From NCBI GenBank assembly GCA_964383705.1, contig CAYLHJ010000001.1, positions 37,659 through 101,658 of the forward strand: a DNA stretch of 64,000 nt. The letters are read 5' to 3'. Below are positions 2,882 through 26,252 of this stretch, in pieces. This DNA is from an uncultured Candidatus Saccharibacteria bacterium. GTDB lineage: Bacteria; Patescibacteriota; Minisyncoccia; Phycocordibacterales; Zambryskibacteraceae. Positions within the stretch are counted from its first letter, which is position 1. Each line of letters opens with the position of its first letter. The position numbers were made by a program, and so were the translations under genes. The notes below the pieces were generated by a model that was given only the letters and a program-made list of their open reading frames with translations, made no database searches and was not told the DNA's origin.

Positions 2882-2978
2882 GGTTGTTAGATGAATTATA
2901 TCAAAAAATATGCTTATTTTTCCTCTTAAAATAGAATATTAATGTGGATAAAAGTTTACCAAGGATTAAGGACTGACT

Positions 2979-11685: not shown

Positions 11686-11712
11686 TAAAAAACCCCAGAT
11701 CTGGGGTTTTTT
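11686..11712. terminator. Bidirectional intrinsic terminator
   Basis: aaaaaacccc agatct ggggtttttt. Confidence 0.55.
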
Positions 11713-12247
11713 AATCAGCTTGTTTGCCACGTTTTTGTCCTTTCATAATCAGATATTTTTTTGGATTCAAATCGAGATCTAAAAAATCGTCCACGCATTC
11801 AATAAGTCGACTAGATGCTGATTTCCCAAAGGCGGCAATCTCAACCTGACAGCCATAGGTATTTTTTAGGTATTCGACAAGCGGGACAAAGTCTCCGTCA
11901 CCAGAAAGTAGAATGACTGTATCTAATTTGTGGGCCATTTTTACTGCATCAATTGCAATACCAACGTCCCAGTCCCCCTTTTTTGCGCCACCAAAAAATA
12001 TTTGAAGATTTTTTGTTTTTGTTTCTATTCCTGCTTTTTCTAAAGCATCAAAAAAACTTTTTTCCTCTCCAGATTCAGTGGTTATAACATAAGCAATTGC
12101 TCGTATGAGAGATCTGCCTGCGAGCATGTCTTTAACAACCTGACCAAAGTTCACCTTTCCATGGTAGAGATTTTTTGCGCTGTGATAGAGATTTTGAGTA
12201 TCAATGAAAACTCCTACTCGCTGATCTTTTTGTTTAATTATTGCCAT
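11711..12247 (-). CDS. NYN/LabA-like (DUF88) domain protein
   Basis: VGVFIDTQNLYHSAKNLY...ILLSGDGDFVPLVEYLKNTYGCQVEIAAF, typical of NYN/LabA nuclease-fold proteins. Confidence 0.7.
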   Translation of the reverse strand: MAIIKQKDQRVGVFIDTQNLYHSAKNLYHGKVNFGQVVKDMLAGRSLIRAIAYVITTESGEEKSFFDALEKAGIETKTKNLQIFFGGAKKGDWDVGIAIDAVKMAHKLDTVILLSGDGDFVPLVEYLKNTYGCQVEIAAFGKSASSRLIECVDDFLDLDLNPKKYLIMKGQKRGKQAD

Positions 12248-12289
12248 AAATCAAGTCTTTTGAGGACTTAGTCAAGATAACGGTGCTTT

Positions 12290-12565
12290 CTATATAACTT
12301 TCTTTTTTAGATTAAGCTTTTTCATTAAAACCTCAAACCTTTTTGGGCTCTTTTTTTGAAGGTAATTCATGTGTGCCTGTCGATTTGAAACCATGCTCAA
12401 GAGCCCCTTGCGCGAATGGTTGTCTTTCTGATTCTTCTTTAAATGGTGGGCCAATTCCTCAATTTGTTTGCTCAATATTGAAATCTGGACCTCAGGTGAA
12501 CCAGTATCAGTATCGTGAATTTTAGCCTCCTTTATAATTTTTTGTTTTTTTGTCTTTGCTATCAT
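12290..12565 (-). CDS. rpsO: 30S ribosomal protein S15
   Basis: DTGSPEVQISILSKQIEELAHHLKKNQKDNHSRKGLLSMVSNRQAHMNYL matches S15. Internal start MIAKTKKQ is preferred over the longer provided ORF. Confidence 0.85.
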   Translation of the reverse strand: MIAKTKKQKIIKEAKIHDTDTGSPEVQISILSKQIEELAHHLKKNQKDNHSRKGLLSMVSNRQAHMNYLQKKSPKRFEVLMKKLNLKKKVI

Positions 12566-12664
12566 TAAGGCCAAGATTAACACAAAACCCTTATTTTTGC
12601 AAGTATTTCATCTCTTTGGAAAAAACACCCATAACTTGATATGATTATTGTGCGACATTAAATC

Positions 12665-13579
12665 ATGGACTTAAAAACCTTAAAACGCGAATTCTTTGAG
12701 CATCTTGAAATTGAGAAAGGCAGAAGTTTAAAGACTATTGAAAATTATGAGAGATATATTGATACCTTTCTTGCTTTTTCAAAGATAAATTTGCCAAAGC
12801 AGATAACAGATTCTCTTATTAGGGAGTATCGCTTGTGGCTTAATCGAAAAGATTTGGGGAATTTAAAGACAGGCAGTAAAGAAAATCTAAAAAAAAAGAC
12901 CCAAAATTATTATCTTATTGCCTTACGAGCTTTTCTTAAGTACTTGAGAAAAAGAGAGATTTCTTCCCTATCACCAGAGAGAATAGAGTTGGCAAAGATC
13001 CCCGAACGCTCTATTGATCTTATTACAACAGATGAATTATCTCGTCTTTTGATGGCAGCCAATGGCGATAATATTAAATCTTTGCGCGATAGAGCCATTT
13101 TAGAGCTATTTTTTTCTACTGGATTAAGAGTTTCTGAACTTTGTTCTCTTAATCGTGACATTGATTTAACTCGGAGTGAATTCTCAGTTCGAGGTAAGGG
13201 TGATAAGGTTCGAGTTGTATTCCTTTCTGATAAATCAAAAATATCACTTAGAAATTACTTAAATAAGCGCAAAGATATGGATGATGCTCTTTTTGTAAGC
13301 CTAAAAAAGGGGGGCGAAACCAAAAGGCTTACTTCGAGATCTATGGAGAGGATTGTAAAATATTATGCTATCAAGGCCGGTATATCTAAGAAAGTTACGC
13401 CACATGTTATTCGTCACAGTTTTGCAACTGATTTGTTGCAAAATGGGGCGGACGTTAGATCAGTCCAAATGTTATTGGGCCATGCAAATATAGGTACAAC
13501 TCAGATTTACACGCATTTAACTGATAAGCATTTACAGGATATTCACAAAAAGTTTCATAATCGCAGAAATTCAAATTAA
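12665..13579 (+). CDS. xerC: Tyrosine site-specific recombinase XerC/XerD family
   Basis: C-terminal catalytic motif HVIRHSFATDLLQNGADVRSVQMLLGHANIGTTQIYTH. Confidence 0.8.
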   Translation: MDLKTLKREFFEHLEIEKGRSLKTIENYERYIDTFLAFSKINLPKQITDSLIREYRLWLNRKDLGNLKTGSKENLKKKTQNYYLIALRAFLKYLRKREISSLSPERIELAKIPERSIDLITTDELSRLLMAANGDNIKSLRDRAILELFFSTGLRVSELCSLNRDIDLTRSEFSVRGKGDKVRVVFLSDKSKISLRNYLNKRKDMDDALFVSLKKGGETKRLTSRSMERIVKYYAIKAGISKKVTPHVIRHSFATDLLQNGADVRSVQMLLGHANIGTTQIYTHLTDKHLQDIHKKFHNRRNSN

Positions 13580-13581
13580 AA

Positions 13582-14346
13582 ATGAAAATTATTTCATGGA
13601 ACGTAAATGGGCTTCGTGCGGTTTATAAAAAGGGTAATTTTGAAGGCATTCTTTCTTCTGAAAATGACATAGTCTGTCTTCAGGAGACAAAATCATTACC
13701 AGATCAACTTCCTCAGGAGTTACAGAATCCAGTTGGCTTCTATGCTTATTTTAATTACCCTAAATTCAAGAAAGGATATAGTGGAGTTGCAATTTTTAGT
13801 AAATCGAAACCCATCGATGTGCTCTATGGAATGAAACGTGGAGAAAGAGATTTGGAAGGTAGGATTATTGGGGCTGAATTTCCAGATTTCTATCTTTTAA
13901 ACGTATACTTTCCCAATGGCGGTGGGGGCCCAGAACGCTTGGCTTATAAATTATCTTTTTATGATGAATTTATTTTTTTTATTGAAGATTTAAGAAAGAA
14001 AAAACCAGTGATATTTTGTGGAGATGTTAACACTGCTCATAAGGAGATTGACCTCGCTCGACCAAAAGAGAATGAAAAAAATACCGGTTTTTTACCTGAA
14101 GAGAGGGCTTGGATAGATAAACTGATAGGGCTTGGCTACGTAGATGTGTTCAGGTTTTTTAATCCAGACCTTATTGGGGCATATACTTATTGGGATATGA
14201 AAACATACGCCCGAGACAGAAATGTTGGTTGGAGAATTGACTATTTTTTTGCTTCAACTGAATTAATTTCACGCATCAATAACACCCTCATAAGAGATGA
14301 TATTTTTGGCTCTGATCACTGCCCAATTACGATGGATATCGTATAG
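13582..14346 (+). CDS. xth: Exodeoxyribonuclease III (AP endonuclease)
   Basis: MKIISWNVNGLRA...HCPITMDI, typical ExoIII/APE1. Confidence 0.85.
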   Translation: MKIISWNVNGLRAVYKKGNFEGILSSENDIVCLQETKSLPDQLPQELQNPVGFYAYFNYPKFKKGYSGVAIFSKSKPIDVLYGMKRGERDLEGRIIGAEFPDFYLLNVYFPNGGGGPERLAYKLSFYDEFIFFIEDLRKKKPVIFCGDVNTAHKEIDLARPKENEKNTGFLPEERAWIDKLIGLGYVDVFRFFNPDLIGAYTYWDMKTYARDRNVGWRIDYFFASTELISRINNTLIRDDIFGSDHCPITMDIV

Positions 14347-14599
14347 GTTAATGGCTTTTATATAATTTAATTATCCACAGATATTTTATTATGTCCTTTA
14401 TACATGCTATAATCTCTGAGGACGTAGTGGCAATTGTTCAAGGACAAGAACCATCACATTAGTTCTTTGTGAGAGCGCTCTCGAAAGGTTAGCTTGGTTT
14501 GGGTTCGTCTAGAGATACGATATATCACCAATCTTTTTTCTTCGGATATTCGTCTAGCGATGTCCTTTACTGAGTGACTCTTTCACCGTTTGTAGAAAC

Positions 14600-14636
14600 C
14601 ACGTAGTGACCGCAACCACTTCGTGGTTTTTTGTTT
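14600..14636 (+). terminator. Plus-strand intrinsic terminator closing an ORF-less transcribed unit
   Basis: accacgtagtgaccgcaaccacttcgtggttttttgttttt. Confidence 0.45.
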
Positions 14637-16109
14637 TTAATTAACTGAGTATTTTTTTCTTATTTGCTTTAAAGATCTTTCCTCCTCCTCCTCTTTTTTC
14701 CGCTTTCCTTTCTCCCCCATTTCTTTTAGTTTGTTTTCAGGGAGTATGGCAAGCTCGGCTGCTCTTTTTTTGAGAATATCTTTAGTGTTTAAAGCTGGAT
14801 TTTCGAGAGTTTCTTCAAGCAAAGCATGTAAGATATGGCCTATTTTTGGACTTGGGGGTAATTTCGTAGCTTCCATAATTCCTTTCCCATCAATCGCGAG
14901 CATTCCTACGGAAACAGGGTCACGTATAACTTCTTCTAGCATCGCTTTATACTTTCGAAGTCTGTAGGGGTTTTCTTTCGGTCTGCCTGTTCCTATTCGG
15001 TCACAGACTCTTATATTCATTAGATCCCAAACGAGCTCTTTTCCGACATTTCCCAATAGCCTTCTTACTGCAGAATGGCTAATTTGTTCGGTATCAGAGA
15101 AAAACATATGCCACCGTACTAATTTTTCCACATTTTCAGTTATTTCTTTAGGGAATCTTAATTCTTTCATTATTTTTTTTGTCATTTTCCCACCTATTAC
15201 TTCATGACCATAGAATGTCCACTCTTTTTTATCTTCTGACCAACGCCTTGTTGCCGGCTTAGCAATGTCGTGGAACAAGGCAGCTAGTCTTATATGCAAC
15301 GGCCAACTTTTATCACTTGCCGCTTGGAGAGATTTCAAAATATGCATCCAGACATCAAAAACGTGCGCTTTATTTTGTTTTACTCCAATGCCGTGTTCAA
15401 GTTCGGGTACAATAAATCTTAAAATGTTAAGCTTTTGAGCCATTATTAAACCATCCATAGGGTTTGGAGACATAATGATCTTTATAAATTCATCTCTTAT
15501 TCTTTCTTTAGCTATTTTGGTCAATAAGGTCGCAGAATCTTTAATGGCCTTCTCTGTATTCTTCTCTATAGAAAAGCCAAGTTCTGCTTGAAGCCGTACT
15601 GCTCGTATAATACGCAAAGCATCTTCCTTAAATCTTTCACTTGGCTCCCCTACCGCCCTAATAATTCCTTTCTGAATATCAGATCTTCCCTCAAATGGAT
15701 CAACAACATCATTTTCTTCAATATCAAGAGCAATTGCATTAATTGTGAAATCACGTCTTTTTAAATCTTCCTCAAGAGTGGCATTAAATGAGACAAAGTC
15801 TGGCCTTCTGTTGTCGGTGTACTTTCCTTCTGTTCTATATGGCGTAACCTCTATGATTTTTAAGGTATCATCATTAGTTTCTGGGCTCACAACCCCAACA
15901 GTTCCATAATCATTCTCATAAAAAGTTTTTTCAAACATGGATACTATCTCATCTGGCTTGGCATTGGTCGTTACGTCCCAATCTCTTGGTTTTTTGCCCA
16001 AAAACAAGTCTCTAACGCAACCACCGATAAGATAGGCCTGAAAACCTGACTTTTTTAGAGTTTTTGTTATTCGTGAAACATCATCTGGAATAGAAAAATG
16101 TTTATTCAT
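14637..16109 (-). CDS. cca: CCA-adding tRNA nucleotidyltransferase with HD domain
   Basis: GGCVRDLFLGKKPRDWDVTT polymerase-beta head; HD region LAALFHDIAKP. Confidence 0.85.
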   Translation of the reverse strand: MNKHFSIPDDVSRITKTLKKSGFQAYLIGGCVRDLFLGKKPRDWDVTTNAKPDEIVSMFEKTFYENDYGTVGVVSPETNDDTLKIIEVTPYRTEGKYTDNRRPDFVSFNATLEEDLKRRDFTINAIALDIEENDVVDPFEGRSDIQKGIIRAVGEPSERFKEDALRIIRAVRLQAELGFSIEKNTEKAIKDSATLLTKIAKERIRDEFIKIIMSPNPMDGLIMAQKLNILRFIVPELEHGIGVKQNKAHVFDVWMHILKSLQAASDKSWPLHIRLAALFHDIAKPATRRWSEDKKEWTFYGHEVIGGKMTKKIMKELRFPKEITENVEKLVRWHMFFSDTEQISHSAVRRLLGNVGKELVWDLMNIRVCDRIGTGRPKENPYRLRKYKAMLEEVIRDPVSVGMLAIDGKGIMEATKLPPSPKIGHILHALLEETLENPALNTKDILKKRAAELAILPENKLKEMGEKGKRKKEEEEERSLKQIRKKYSVN

Positions 16110-16200
16110 ATTTAACTATTCTATCATTCTTAACCATATCTCATAATTTATGGCTTATAATTTGAACAATTTTCATAACAGGGTATGATTGTGTATACTT

Positions 16201-16275
16201 GCACCCGTGGTGAAATGGATATCACAACGGTCTTCGGAACCGTTATTGTGGGTTCGAATCCTGCCGGGTGCACCA
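16201..16275 (+). tRNA. tRNA-Arg (anticodon TCG), CCA encoded
   Basis: Folded by hand. Acceptor gcacccg/cgggtgc, anticodon stem acggt/accgt with loop cTTCGga, T-loop ttcgaat. Confidence 0.7.
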
Positions 16276-16276
16276 T

Positions 16277-16347
16277 GCGGGTATGGTTTAGTGGTAGAAT
16301 GACTGCCTTCCAAGCAGTAGACGGGAGTTCGATTCTCCCTACCCGCA
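16277..16347 (+). tRNA. tRNA-Gly (anticodon TCC)
   Basis: gcgggta...actgc CTTCCAA gcagt...tacccgc a; classic Gly-tRNA sequence. Confidence 0.75.
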
Positions 16348-16585
16348 CAATAATAATAAATCTTCATTCTTATGACCTATGAAGGTCCTTTAAGAGTAAA
16401 AAACACGCTAACAGTATTTTGTAAAAAACGTTGTTAATAAAGGGGAATTTGACCATAAAAATACAAAAAGTTAAGAAAATGGGGATAATCCTGTGGAATA
16501 TGTGTATTAAAGACAGTCTTTTAGCCTATTTTATAGGACTAAAGCATCTTATTTTGGCTTAAAATAAGGATTCATTACATAGTGA

Positions 16586-16603
16586 ATGTTTCACGTGAAA
16601 CAT
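16586..16603. promoter_or_regulatory. Perfect 18-bp palindrome atgtttcacgtgaaacat upstream of yraN (possible operator)
   Basis: Seen directly in the sequence; self-complementary with a cacgtg core, 35 nt upstream of the yraN ATG. Confidence 0.3.
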
Positions 16604-16638
16604 AAACAAATTTGTTATTTATGAAACAATGAATATTA

Positions 16639-17031
16639 ATGAAAACTCTAAAAAGAGCTATTGGCGACTTGGGAGAGGAGATTTCCTGTAAGTTTCTCAT
16701 GAAACATGGTTTTACGATCCGTGAGAGGAATTATCTAAAACCGTGGGGTGAGATAGATATCATTTGCTCAAAAGATAATGTAATTCATTTTGTTGAGGTT
16801 AAATCTGTAGTTTGTGATGTAAATCAATTTGTTACTCATGAAACTAAAAAAGGATACAGGCCAGAGGAAAACATCCATCAGGCCAAATTAAAAAGACTCT
16901 CAAGAGTAATTCAGACTTATTTGATGGAAAAAAATGAGGAGAGTGATTGGCGATTTGATGTTTTAGCTGTATTTATTGAAAAAGACTTAAAAAGGGCAAA
17001 AGTCAGATTTATAAGTGATGTTGTCCTTTAG
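16639..17031 (+). CDS. yraN: YraN/UPF0102 family endonuclease
   Basis: LGEEISCKFLMKHGFTIRERNY...GEIDIICSKDNVIHFVEVK. Confidence 0.75.
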   Translation: MKTLKRAIGDLGEEISCKFLMKHGFTIRERNYLKPWGEIDIICSKDNVIHFVEVKSVVCDVNQFVTHETKKGYRPEENIHQAKLKRLSRVIQTYLMEKNEESDWRFDVLAVFIEKDLKRAKVRFISDVVL

Positions 17032-17083
17032 CCTCAGTATTCGCTGTTTTTTTTCACGCATGATAGTATGGGAAAGTTATATT

Positions 17084-17156
17084 CGGGGCGTGGTGTAACG
17101 GCTAACATGTCTGTTTTGGGAACAGATGACTCCGGGTTCGAATCCCGGCGCCCCGA
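17084..17156 (+). tRNA. tRNA-Pro (anticodon TGG)
   Basis: cggggcg...tctgt TTTGGGA acaga...cgccccg a. Confidence 0.75.
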
Positions 17157-17204
17157 CAATCATTACCTGATAGATTGCATTCAGGGCTATTTTAGAAGAT
17201 ATAT

Positions 17205-17528
17205 TTGATAACAGTAAATATGTTCAAAAAGAAGATTGAAGATTTTATCTGTGAATACTGTGGTAAAAAAAACACCGGATCAGGTTTTACTAACCATTGC
17301 TCACAGTGTTTGTGGAGTAAACACGTTGATATTGATCCTGGAGACAGGGAAGGGAATTGCGGTGGCTTGATGGAACCAATTGATGTGGAAAAACATGGAA
17401 ATGACTACAGAATAGTGCATAAATGTCTAAAATGTGGTTTTTTGAGACCAAATCCTGTTACAAAGCAAGATGATTTTAATGCCGTTCTTGCTGTATCTCA
17501 AAAGGCGGCTGAAAAAAAGGATGTTTAA
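17205..17528 (+). CDS. RNHCP-domain zinc-ribbon protein
   Basis: FICEYCGKKNTGSGFTNHCSQCLWSKHVDIDPGD...HKCLKCGF matches the RNHCP (PF12647) pattern. Confidence 0.6.
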   Translation: MITVNMFKKKIEDFICEYCGKKNTGSGFTNHCSQCLWSKHVDIDPGDREGNCGGLMEPIDVEKHGNDYRIVHKCLKCGFLRPNPVTKQDDFNAVLAVSQKAAEKKDV

Positions 17529-17580
17529 TTGCGATAGGGAGGTCAATTTGTTAGTATAATTTTCACTGCTTCATCGAATT

Positions 17581-17651
17581 GCGGCTATGGTTTAGTGGTA
17601 GAATGCGTCCTTGCCAAGGACGAGACGGGAGTTCGATTCTCCCTAGCCGCA
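17581..17651 (+). tRNA. tRNA-Gly (anticodon GCC)
   Basis: gcggcta...cgtcc TTGCCAA ggacg...tagccgc a. Confidence 0.75.
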
Positions 17652-17795
17652 CCGTTTAAATATATATAGTTGTATTGTTTTCGTGATTCCAGGCATTTGT
17701 AATAGAATAGGCGGATCCAGAAGATTATCTTCCTGATTGGACTGATGATCGCCCCCACGGCCGTGTGCCTGTCCGTTGGGTCTTTAAAACTAAAA

Positions 17796-17822
17796 CAAAA
17801 AACCGCATAAAGCGGTTTTTTG
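17796..17822. terminator. Bidirectional terminator
   Basis: aaaaaaccgc ataa agcggtttttt between the tRNA-Gly trailer and convergent hup. Confidence 0.55.
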
Positions 17823-17843
17823 TTAAGAAAAACAGAATTTCTC

Positions 17844-18116
17844 TTATTTTACAGCATCTTTTAATGCTTTTGCTGCTCGAAACTTCGGAACTCTCATTGA
17901 GCTAACCTGGATAGTTTCACCTGTTCTTGGATTTCGTGCTTGTCGTGCAGCACGGACCTTTGTTGAAAAGATGCCAAGGCCGGCAATTGAAACTTCTCCA
18001 CCTTTTTTTAGTGTAGAAACTAGGGTTTCAATCATGGTTTCAACTGCTTGCTCGGCCTGAACTTTTGTTCCGCCGATCTTTGCATGAACCGCTTCCACAA
18101 TTCCTTGTTTGTTCAT
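17844..18116 (-). CDS. hup: DNA-binding protein HU
   Basis: MNKQGIVEAV...GLGIFSTKVRAARQARNPRTGETIQV. Confidence 0.9.
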   Translation of the reverse strand: MNKQGIVEAVHAKIGGTKVQAEQAVETMIETLVSTLKKGGEVSIAGLGIFSTKVRAARQARNPRTGETIQVSSMRVPKFRAAKALKDAVK

Positions 18117-18282
18117 AATGTATGAATAAAATAATATGCGATGAATAATATCGACGCCTTTCGTTATTCCTTATCTAGCGAAACTACAGCTTCAGCTAGC
18201 TCAAAGGTATAGAAACATTATATAGTAAGCCATCTTTTCCGCAAGAAACATTTTTTTCTAAAAAATAGTAACACAAATCATT

Positions 18283-19812
18283 CTATCTGGCAAATTCGAT
18301 AATCCTAGATTCTCTTATTATGGTTACCTTTATTTCTCCAGGGTATTTTAATTCATTTTCTATCTTGGTTGCTATGTCTCGGGCTAGTTTTTTGGCTTCT
18401 AAATCAGAGACTTCATTTGGTGTAACGAACACTCTGACCTCTCTGCCGGCTTGCAAAGCATATGATTTTTCAACTCCAGGGAAGTCTGTGGCGATAGCTT
18501 CAAGTTCCTTGAGGCGTTTTAAGTAGTTTTCAACGGTATCTCTTCGCGCCCCCGGTCTGCCACCAGAGATTGCGTCGGCAGTTTGGACGATAATTGATTC
18601 AATCGTCTCATACGGATATTCTCCGTGGTGAGCCTGCATGCCCTTTATAATTTCTTCGCTTGCTCCAAATTTCTGAAGTATCCTTCTGCCAATTTCAACA
18701 TGAGTACCAACAACTTCGTGGTCCACAGCTTTACCAATGTCATGAAGCAGGGCGGCCGCTTTGGCAACAGATACATTGGCGCCAAGTTCCTCTGCGAGCA
18801 TTCTGGCAATATGTGCCATCTCAATTGAGTGTTGAAGTACATTTTGTCCATAACTTGTTCTGAAATGTAGCCTCCCCAGGATTGCAATAATTCTCGGGTC
18901 AAGATTATAGACTCCACACTCATAAACTGCTTGGTCACCCTTTTCTTTTATAATTTTGTTTATTTCAAGTTTTGCTTTTTCGACACTTTCTTCAATTTTG
19001 GCAGGTTGAATTCTGCCGTCGGCTATGAGGTTTTCAAGGGCAACCCTGGCAACTTGTCTTCTAACCGGGTCAAAAGACGATAGGGTGATAGATCCCGGGG
19101 TGTCATCGACAATTACTTCAACACCAGTGGTTCGTTCAAAAGCCTTGATATTTCTACCTTCTTTTCCTATGATCTTTCCTTTGACCTCGTCTGATGGAAT
19201 ATTGACTGTTGTTGTCATAATTTCAGAAGGAACGGCGCTAGCAAGGCGTTGAATTGTTAAAGCTAAAATATTTTTTGCTTTTTCTTCAATTTTTTCATTT
19301 CCCATCATTTCAAGCTTTTGTACACGCGCAATCAAATCTTCTTCCGATTGTTTCTCGACAATTTTCAAAAGTTCTTCACGGGCTTCTTCTTTGCCCATGT
19401 GAGATATCTTTTCGAGAGAGTTTTCTTTCTCAATTGCCAGAGCATCAACTTTTTCCTTAATTGTTTTTACTTCGGCGATGCGAGTCTTTAGTTCTTCGGC
19501 CTCTTTATCAATATCAAGTTGTCTAGTATCAAGAAAATCCTCCTTTTTTATCAGGCGCTCTTCTGTTTTTTTAATTTTTTCTTCCCTCTCTTTTATTTCT
19601 GCCCGTGCGGATTTTATTGTTTCCTCGGCTTTTTTCTCTGCTTCAGTTGTGACTCTTTTTGCTTCTTCTCTGGCCTCGAGCATCATCTGCTTGATATCAA
19701 GTTCCATAGAACCCTTTTTCCCAAGTGAAATAATCCAACGAAGGAAATAACCAAATGCAATGCCTGAAGACGCCGCAAGCGTTACTAAGAGTAGGACAAT
19801 CTTTAATGACAT
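18283..19812 (-). CDS. rny: Ribonuclease Y
   Basis: N-terminal TM, coiled coil, KH domain (KGKIIGKEGRNIKAFERTTG), HD domain (LLHDIGKA). Confidence 0.9.
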   Translation of the reverse strand: MSLKIVLLLVTLAASSGIAFGYFLRWIISLGKKGSMELDIKQMMLEAREEAKRVTTEAEKKAEETIKSARAEIKEREEKIKKTEERLIKKEDFLDTRQLDIDKEAEELKTRIAEVKTIKEKVDALAIEKENSLEKISHMGKEEAREELLKIVEKQSEEDLIARVQKLEMMGNEKIEEKAKNILALTIQRLASAVPSEIMTTTVNIPSDEVKGKIIGKEGRNIKAFERTTGVEVIVDDTPGSITLSSFDPVRRQVARVALENLIADGRIQPAKIEESVEKAKLEINKIIKEKGDQAVYECGVYNLDPRIIAILGRLHFRTSYGQNVLQHSIEMAHIARMLAEELGANVSVAKAAALLHDIGKAVDHEVVGTHVEIGRRILQKFGASEEIIKGMQAHHGEYPYETIESIIVQTADAISGGRPGARRDTVENYLKRLKELEAIATDFPGVEKSYALQAGREVRVFVTPNEVSDLEAKKLARDIATKIENELKYPGEIKVTIIRESRIIEFAR

Positions 19813-26081: not shown

Positions 26082-26252
26082 GGGAAACCTCTTTGGTTAA
26101 TATATGTATGTGTTAAAGAGCGGAGTAAGTTTGTCTAAAAAAATTATAAAATTTAAAACGGATGTATGTCAATGTTATCCACAACTTGTTTGGAATATTT
26201 TCATGAATTTGAGGATTATTTTATGTTATTATTAGGAGTCTAAAGGGGTTTA

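Follow-up and report, generated by a model that had tools for sequence, protein, structure and literature searches.

The gap between xth and cca in a 64,000-nt stretch of DNA from an uncultured Candidatus Saccharibacteria bacterium (assembly GCA_964383705.1, contig CAYLHJ010000001.1, positions 37,659 to 101,658; here referred to as the window) probably contains an RNA gene. Our analyses support that positions 14371 to 14638 on the plus strand represent an autonomous gene for a structured noncoding RNA (ncRNA) of ~215 nt, which would belong to a family that is conserved in the Paceibacterota (Parcubacteria) of the Candidate Phyla Radiation (CPR) and absent from Rfam 15; based on sequence, we give this reading a probability of about 0.8. 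That the locus is an independent structured RNA gene is very likely; for any specific mechanism, our confidence is well below even odds. On the plus strand, the complete transcription unit consists of a DnaA box, the element TGTCCTTTA, an extended −10 element, the RNA body, and a terminator that reaches the cca stop codon. An initial annotation, made from the letters of the window, had proposed that the gap is a unit without open reading frames (ORFs) that has its own promoter and terminator and encodes a small ncRNA, and conservation, covariation, and independence from the neighboring genes now speak for this proposal. The gap is 290 nt long and, in agreement with that annotation, contains no ORF of more than 27 amino acids on either strand. 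No conserved ORF was found in the homologues, in which the longest ORFs vary by strand, frame, and sequence from genome to genome. The unit thus has the features of a generic independent small RNA gene, i.e., its own promoter, its own Rho-independent terminator, no ORF, conservation in relatives, and one copy per locus.

Conservation, covariation, and structure

As relatives, we used 80 species-level loci retrieved by their cca protein (57 to 70% identity), all of which come from Paceibacterota/Parcubacteria-type CPR metagenome-assembled genomes (MAGs). In 68 of the 80, xth is convergent to cca, usually after xerC; the gap between the stop codons of the two genes is never <260 nt and is typically 270 to 600 nt, which is large for such compact genomes. 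Using a covariance model (CM) built from the window sequence only (14418 to 14632, with a curated minimum free energy [MFE] structure), we identified full-length homologues in 10 relatives (E values, 1e-18 to 7e-4), including one that lies on the opposite strand. For the wide search, we used a core CM of 136 positions, R2, which gave exactly one match in the window and in 47 of the 80 relatives; every match lies immediately past the stop codon of cca. Conservation, on which the initial annotation had made its proposal depend, was thus found, in that the unit lies beside cca in most related Paceibacterota genomes. Two Logan contigs hold a sequence identical to the window.

In the window, the unit immediately follows xth in the same orientation and provides the first terminator beyond xth, as would also be expected if it were not a separate gene and instead formed the 3' untranslated region of xth with its terminator and/or a terminator shared by the convergent xth and cca. 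This explanation is highly improbable. The R2 matches are inverted in eight genomes (L029, L035, L040, L052, L055, L070, L075, and L079), and some are found in loci without xth (L021, L081, and others). Moreover, a conserved near-consensus extended −10 element lies between xth and the RNA body, and a covarying structure of 200 to 300 nt far exceeds the needs of a terminator. Because the unit is inverted in eight genomes, is present without xth, and has its own promoter, we conclude that it is not the 3' untranslated region of xth. The possibility considered in the initial annotation that the terminator simply serves read-through from xth is excluded by the same inverted copies and by the copies without a nearby xth.

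In the CM alignment of the 11 full-length sequences, 90% of the cells were paired compared to 66% after shuffling and 44 to 46% after sliding by 1 to 3 columns, and 52 of the 59 pairs showed changes on both sides. For the 48 sequences identified by R2, 72% of the cells were paired (60% shuffled, 43 to 50% slid) with a covariation score of 0.399 versus ≤0.133. A third alignment was generated for 14 core sequences with MAFFT from sequence only, and the window structure was projected on it; here, 69% of the cells were paired versus 37 to 54% after sliding, and the covariation score was 0.297 versus ≤0.147. RNAalifold on plain MAFFT alignments recovered only the base helix. Pairs were slightly more frequent on the plus strand than on the opposite strand (72.4 versus 67.3% for the 48 sequences and 90 versus 84% for the 11 sequences), in agreement with the orientation of the promoter and the U-run, and the plus strand is the predicted transcribed strand.

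The comparative fold comprises four consecutive hairpin domains and no stem that closes the 5' and 3' ends (Table 1). Among the 11 full-length homologues, compensatory changes occur in 6 of the 7 pairs of the stem of the 5' domain, and a by-eye alignment agrees. The base helix of the long hairpin H4 is conserved (GAAAG.../...CUGAG...CUUUC) and shows compensatory changes in 10 to 11 of 15 pairs; for its two basal pairs, the 48 sequences have GC in 18 and AU in 16, and AU in 22 and GC in 19, respectively. Of the short complementary segments pointed out in the initial annotation, the cgtctag segments indeed pair within H4 (14483 to 14584). A helix between the 5' AGRAC and the GUUCUUU motif, seen in some MFE folds, was dropped because GUUC is changed to GUAC in L007, L008, and L012 without compensation, as judged by eye. 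Similarly, we rejected the idea that the apical loop of H4 mimics the 3' end of 16S rRNA (anti-Shine-Dalgarno) because CCUCC is present in few members, while the consensus is just YNCAMYYU.

In the window, hairpin H3 is a perfect palindrome without a spacer (GAGAGCGCTCTC), and all four of its pairs covary. Spacer-less palindromes of 10 to 18 nt are present at H3 in 22 of the 47 homologues, while 1.1 were expected based on shuffles; most of the remaining homologues have a self-complementary GGCC, CUGCAG, CGGCCG, or TGGCCA (in DNA letters) in the H3 loop. The centers of the palindromes drift (GCGC, TGCA, GTAC, AGCT, TCGA, CTAG, ATAT, ACGT, and CATG) and the symmetry is kept. A protein-binding site on DNA would keep its sequence and an ordinary hairpin does not need a self-complementary loop; therefore, a loop-loop contact between RNAs is the simplest reading of a symmetry that is kept while the sequence drifts. 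These observations suggest that H3 could be the kissing or extended-duplex contact of an RNA homodimer. By analogy, and with a likeness of one motif only, H3 resembles the dimerization initiation site of HIV-1 and kissing loops in having a self-complementary 4- to 6-mer at its apex (GCGC, GGCC, UGCA, UCGA, and others). In the HIV-1 site, a 6-nt palindrome lies within a 9-nt loop, whereas H3 in many cases is a palindrome with no spacer at all.

The initial annotation had ended the unit in a plus-strand hairpin with a U-run at 14600 to 14636. This terminator is supported, with revised coordinates: the stem spans 14599 to 14626 and is followed by T6 (14627 to 14632), a G, and T5 up to 14638, and the last bases overlap the cca stop codon (14637 to 14639, minus strand). 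Among the 11 full-length homologues, 13 of the 14 stem pairs covary. A GC-rich hairpin with a T-run is located ≤75 nt after the core in 39 of the 48 homologues and ≤150 nt after it in 47 of the 48; in the relatives, it is a long GC-rich hairpin of the type (A)ACCGCYC...GRGCGG followed by U5-8.

Forty of the 48 copies converge on cca with a terminator that abuts the cca stop codon, and cca is linked to ~90% of the genuine promoter-selected metagenome loci among the matches listed (see below). In Listeria and Clostridium, antisense RNAs under the control of riboswitches have been described. These points would fit a cis-acting leader or attenuator in which regulated read-through results in antisense transcription into the convergent cca (or xth). 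Against this very unlikely alternative, the terminators are long and GC rich with a U6-8 run, which is the usual form of efficient, constitutive terminators; we found no antiterminator structure that is conserved as an alternative; and the unit points away from cca in the eight genomes with inverted copies. Rfam families of T-boxes, riboswitches, and other cis-regulatory elements did not rise above noise in the window slice, and a T-box or riboswitch leader was rejected because the next gene is convergent and the orientation flips in the eight genomes; with no gene following on the same strand, the unit is not a leader. The 8-mer ACGTAGTG is present both at 14423 to 14430 (5' stem) and at 14602 to 14609 (5' arm of the terminator), and alternative pairing is possible. 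A P1-like closing helix or antiterminator formed via this repeat was rejected because, by eye, the relatives do not have the repeat and its recurrence within 220 nt is at about chance level for an 8-mer.

Table 1. Features of the predicted RNA gene and its surroundings (positions in the window)
Feature	Position	Strand	Description
Neighborhood	11711-19812		NYN-domain RNase, S15, xerC, xth, cca, tRNA-Arg/Gly/Pro/Gly, HU-like protein (17844-18116), RNase Y (18283-19812)
xth	13582-14346	+	ORF; Pfam Exo_endo_phos
DnaA box	14371-14379	+	Perfect 9-mer TTATCCACA, 28 nt upstream of the −10 hexamer; upstream promoter element
TGTCCTTTA element	14392-14400	+	In promoter spacer, start 16 nt before the −10 element; putative operator for a DNA-binding regulator
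Extended −10 element, TGcTATAAT	14405-14413	+	TG at 14405-14406, TATAAT at 14408-14413
Predicted primary transcript, ~215 nt	14419-14632	+	5' end from conserved (C/G)AGRAC 5-9 nt after the −10 element, 3' end in the U-run; both inferred
5' domain	14424-14457	+	Stem GUAGUGG (14424-14430)/CCAUCAC (14451-14457); encloses a small hairpin with conserved AAGGACA(A)
GUUCUUU motif	14462-14468	+	Nearly invariant in the 48-sequence alignment, single-stranded; linker between 5' domain and H3
Hairpin H3, GAGAGCGCUCUC	14471-14482	+	Perfect 12-nt palindrome, self-complementary loop; candidate kissing-loop/dimerization element
Long irregular hairpin H4	14483-14584	+	MFE fold; base helix GAAAGGUUA.GCUUGG with CUGAGUGAC.CUUUC
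H4 conserved stem	14522-14526 with 14545-14549	+	AUAUC/GAUAU
H4 apical loop, 18 nt	14527-14544	+	Pyrimidine-rich; begins NCCAAYCU
Intrinsic terminator	14599-14638	+	Stem-loop CCACGUAGUGACCGCAACCACUUCGUGG, then U6-G-U5
cca	14637-16109	-	ORF; PolyA_pol, HD, and tRNA_NucTran2_2 domains

Promoter region and DNA-level alternatives

The promoter is conserved in 47 of the 48 homologues. In the gaps of the relatives, the common layout comprises an often present inverted TAAAGGACA, GTTATCCACA(G), one to three copies of TGTCYTTTA(Y) in 11-bp phase, and TGnTA(T/C)A(C/A)T, which is kept at the same distance; downstream of this −10 element, (T)CAGRAC follows after 5 to 9 nt, and then a body of 200 to 300 nt, the hairpin, and U5-8. 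The TATAAT that the initial annotation placed at about 14395 to 14412 is present, and its correct position is 14408 to 14413. A simple promoter scan did not call this promoter because it has no good −35 element. The last TGTCYTTTA repeat starts 16 to 17 nt before the −10 element and the preceding one 27 to 28 nt before it, while in the relatives inverted copies of the TGTCCTTTA-type element are found upstream of the DnaA box and at ~+25. Two patterns that include the repeat are almost confined to this gene: the composite TTATCCACA-N(5-30)-TGTCYTTT is present as an exact match in 45 of 82 loci, and exact tandem 11-bp copies in 28 loci are located almost only here. TGTCYTTTA as a general promoter element was rejected since it is neither enriched in the window nor present upstream of the tRNA genes. 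We also rejected the idea that the AAGGACA of the RNA pairs with promoter DNA at TGTCCTT, as the C/T variants do not covary between genomes.

In 47 of the 48 homologues, a DnaA box with ≤1 mismatch precedes the RNA core at the same position. In the 652 kb of sequence from relatives, TTATCCACA is present 127 times, including 36 times at this promoter; with a chance expectation of less than ~10 by a rough estimate that was not computed, DnaA boxes are over-represented. The recurrent sites are two, i.e., this promoter and a cluster of three to five boxes 350 to 600 nt upstream of cca. In the window, the other two perfect copies of TTATCCACA (2943 to 2951, minus strand; 26175 to 26183, plus strand) are both intergenic and point to the downstream gene, and DnaA boxes may be general promoter elements in this organism.

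Sites for OmpR/PhoB-type activators (Pho boxes) replace the −35 element at the spacing described above. The repeats share with the promoters of this family direct repeats of ~7 conserved bp in 11-bp phase, of which the last lies 16 to 17 nt before the −10 element, and they also stand in place of a good −35 element; the consensus DnaA box just upstream is as in DnaA-regulated promoters. They differ in that the repeat is TGTCYTTTA instead of the Escherichia coli Pho box and its binding protein is putative, in that about half of the promoters have one clear repeat, and in the extra inverted copies that flank them. By analogy, the repeats and the DnaA box would form a response-regulator-like arrangement of sites. 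Given phased repeats at OmpR/PhoB-type positions and a DnaA box upstream, the level of the RNA would probably be tied to a signal and/or to the status of DnaA.

Some features around the gene raised the idea of a replication origin. A perfect 16-bp parS, TGTTTCACGTGAAACA, is located at 16587 to 16602 between tRNA-Gly and a yraN-like ORF (16639 to 17031), and parS-like sites are also present beside the RNA/cca module in L023, L032, L045, L047, L076, and L082, which suggests that the module is probably origin-proximal. The second, very conserved cluster of three to five DnaA-box-like 9-mers is preceded by TGTCYTT and lies ~350 to 600 nt upstream of cca in the relatives, with the pattern ...GACC-TGTCCTTAATACACA-TGTCCCCAGAC-TTATCCACAG-TTTTCCACA... 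(e.g., L027, 3532 to 3600). The window copy is degenerate (AAAGACTGTCTTTAATACACATATTCCACAGGATTATCCCCA; ~16470 to 16525, minus strand) and adjoins parS; this cluster could be a datA/DARS-like or promoter-regulatory site. The region from 11711 to 19812 is rich in genes for RNA metabolism and the nucleoid around the RNA gene (Table 1), and cca ends in a Lys/Glu-rich C-terminal tail (KEMGEKGKRKKEEEEERSLKQIRKK).

These features raise the alternative that the conserved entity is a DNA element and the RNA incidental, i.e., that a DnaA box and an iteron-like array form part of an oriC, a site that titrates or reactivates DnaA, or a recombination site. The perfect DnaA box, the 11-bp phased TGTCYTTTA copies in both orientations, the spacer-less palindrome of H3, the larger second DnaA-box cluster and perfect parS 2 kb away across cca, and xerC at a distance of 1 kb all fit this alternative. 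Nevertheless, we consider it quite unlikely. Compensatory changes maintain the helices despite differing sequences, a behavior not shown by DNA sites that bind proteins; the −10 element and the hairpin with its U-run are conserved in a fixed orientation; and the sequence of H3 varies freely with symmetry alone being kept. In addition, the third-position skews (GC3/AT3) keep one sign: on the plus strand, G3 exceeds C3 and T3 exceeds A3 across the 64 kb in genes of both orientations, with few weak exceptions. The window therefore contains neither an origin nor a terminus, and oriC or half of a bipartite oriC in the window was rejected. One of the few exceptions is cca, with a third-position GC skew opposite in sign to that of its neighbors (+0.15 on the cca coding strand). 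Genes lie mostly on the minus strand before ~26.1 kb and on the plus strand thereafter, and the raw cumulative GC skew turns at this point; with third-position skews of one sign, the raw skew reflects gene orientation and not an origin. Neither dnaA nor dnaN was found among the ORFs scanned between 393 and 26792. More likely, the DnaA box is a DnaA-dependent promoter element rather than part of an origin.

Distribution and interpretation of the RNA gene

A metagenome scan by the promoter pattern alone identified at least 120 loci. Among the matches listed, 56 of the 69 promoter-selected loci with ≥1.5 kb of downstream sequence have cca within 1.1 kb, while of the 13 exceptions listed, 8 are chance matches in coding DNA and 5 have an RNA-like body (GTTCTTT and a terminator) without cca within 1.1 kb. 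GUUCUUU is located ≤140 nt from the −10 element in 63 of 113 promoter-selected loci among the matches listed. Across the wider phylum, the promoter and a terminated noncoding body are kept, GUUCUUU is present in roughly half of the loci listed from the promoter scan, and the fold diverges quickly. A promoter that is kept with a fold that diverges fits better with a lineage-specific regulatory or scaffold RNA than with a universal ribozyme-type ribonucleoprotein. We note that two loci with a Paceibacterota-type cca (61 to 63% identity) and an R2 match are labelled as other taxa, i.e., L021 (JBEBJM010000054, Nitrospira sp.) and L022 (DATGWK010000109, Nanoarchaeia archaeon); these are probably CPR contigs mis-binned into MAGs of other taxa.

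Several points count against an autonomous, conserved structured RNA gene. The energy of the MFE fold is not significant compared to shuffles (z = −1.46 on the plus strand and −1.20 on the minus strand). Thus, folding of the region, by which the initial annotation would have judged its candidate, gave hairpins without a significant energy, and the GC-balanced composition it had described amounts to a slight rise in G+C content (0.41 in the gap versus 0.33 to 0.37 in the flanks). The single sequence therefore proves nothing, and the support above chance is comparative. Fitting to the structure inflates the pair counts of the CM-derived alignments, which is mitigated by the sequence-only MAFFT alignment, and the middle of H4 is poorly conserved (40 to 66% paired in the 48 sequences). 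R2 recognizes the core in 10 of 80 promoter-selected metagenome loci among the matches listed; the RNA body therefore diverges fast, and the term family is firm for part of the phylum only. Both ends of the RNA are predicted from sequence, and dimerization, control by DnaA or a response regulator, and action in trans are inferences. Finally, TGTCYTTTA in both orientations, the DnaA box, and the perfect palindromes could reflect functions at the level of DNA.

Taking these points together with the comparative evidence, we consider it most likely that the RNA is stable, regulated, and lineage-specific, with a structural or regulatory role. Its promoter would be strong and under the control or modulation of a regulator, giving rise to a discrete stable transcript; the apices of H3 may pair two RNA molecules loop to loop, such that the working form may be a homodimer; and action in trans could proceed through the GUUCUUU linker together with the conserved loops of H4, both internal and apical, with the RNA serving as a protein-binding scaffold or a base-pairing regulator. 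A far more specific scenario is doubtful: a self-dimerizing, Paceibacterota-specific housekeeping RNA, made under the control of DnaA and a dedicated repeat-binding regulator, which, within an origin-proximal module (xerC-xth-RNA-cca-tRNAs-DnaA-box cluster-parS), would link the replication cycle to RNA/tRNA metabolism or to the state of growth.

The RNA gene is likely important to the biology of the Paceibacterota, given that it is kept beside cca in most of those sampled and has an elaborate conserved promoter. Current annotation misses it because there is no Rfam family. The CPR (Patescibacteria) account for much of bacterial diversity and have genomes of 0.5 to 1 Mb with very few known regulators or ncRNAs. 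The coordinates, the structure model, the candidate dimerization hairpin, the GUUCUUU motif, and the candidate operators for DnaA and a repeat-binding protein together provide a testable object that can be used in metatranscriptomics, structural work, and a new Rfam family. If dimerization or the coupling to DnaA holds true, RNA-only assemblies and replication-linked RNA regulation would extend to the CPR.

Comparison with known RNAs

In searches of the whole window, Rfam 15 identified only four tRNAs. A permissive Rfam scan of 14250 to 14750 gave noise, with a eukaryotic snoRNA as the best match (E = 1.7). At E ≤ 10, no family matched 350- to 500-nt slices of three divergent members (the window, L016, and L009), and none was found in 11 further whole relative loci. 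In particular, the initial annotation had suggested 6S RNA, a short signal recognition particle (SRP) RNA, or another housekeeping small RNA, and had listed 6S, SRP, transfer-messenger RNA (tmRNA), and RNase P among the models to scan with; these scans of the window and 13 relatives gave no match, whether the gathering score or E ≤ 10 was used as the cutoff, and the fold is a different one. The 6S model (RF00013) had no match in this set, and 6S was rejected because four hairpins with an autonomous terminator hairpin at the 3' end take the place of the single 6S rod, which has a central bubble and a 5'/3' closing stem. The SRP models (RF00169 and RF01854) did not match, and no GNAR tetraloop with symmetric and asymmetric loops, as expected for domain IV, is visible in the alignment. 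The RNase P models (RF00010 and RF00011) had no match at E ≤ 10, and a GAGGAAAGUCC-type P4 is absent; a minimal RNase P reading (P3-GAAAG...ACUGAG-CUUUC) was rejected based on size, local pairing, and the lack of an RF00010 signal. ARAGORN identified four tRNAs and no tmRNA in the window, and Rfam gave no tmRNA match. As far as Rfam models can see, 6S, SRP, RNase P, tmRNA, T-box, raiA, and ROOL are excluded. Literature searches found no description of such an ncRNA in CPR, Parcubacteria, or Patescibacteria; although its general kind is known, the RNA represents a new family, described neither in Rfam 15 nor in the searchable literature.

A known housekeeping RNA that has diverged beyond the Rfam models in the CPR, most plausibly a 6S-like RNA polymerase binder or else SRP or RNase P RNA, is an unlikely alternative. 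It would explain a single-copy, phylum-wide, strongly promoted stable-RNA gene among tRNA and RNA-metabolism genes, and 6S RNAs are notoriously poor in sequence conservation. Yet, with permissive filters, RF00013, RF00169, RF01854, RF00010/11, and tmRNA were without a match at E ≤ 10 in the three slices and the 11 loci, and four hairpins in a row lack a closing stem, a central bubble, SRP domain IV, and a GAGGAAAGUCC-type P4. CPR RNase P RNAs do fall below Rfam thresholds; however, RF00010 at lowered thresholds recovered the RNase P RNA in all CPR genomes analyzed by Lui et al. 2021 (PMC8172020).

The RNA shares with these diverged CPR RNase P RNAs that it is a structural RNA of the CPR missed by standard thresholds (PMC8172020). 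Superficially, it also resembles the P3/P4/J2-4 region of RNase P RNA in that a hairpin precedes a GAAAG segment, whose 3' pairing partner CUUUC comes after ACUGAG; unlike RNase P RNA, it is too short, has no S-domain and no P15, and its GAAAG/CUUUC pairing is the base of one hairpin. Like 6S (RF00013) and its analogues, e.g., Ms1, it appears as a stand-alone gene with a strong promoter for an abundant-looking RNA of ~200 nt, conserved across a large clade and kept in small genomes. Unlike these, it has no CM match, no rod with a central bubble, and no closing stem, and its conserved 3' domain is an intrinsic terminator of its own. ROOL, GOLLD, and OLE reportedly form RNA-only multimers, according to cryo-electron microscopy work from 2024 to 2025. 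Compared to ROOL, GOLLD, and OLE, the RNA described here is much smaller, and it differs from these three and raiA in having no Rfam match and in its phylum and genomic context; with all four, it shares the character of a clade-wide, multidomain structured RNA with conserved loops, and like ROOL, GOLLD, and OLE, it may self-associate.

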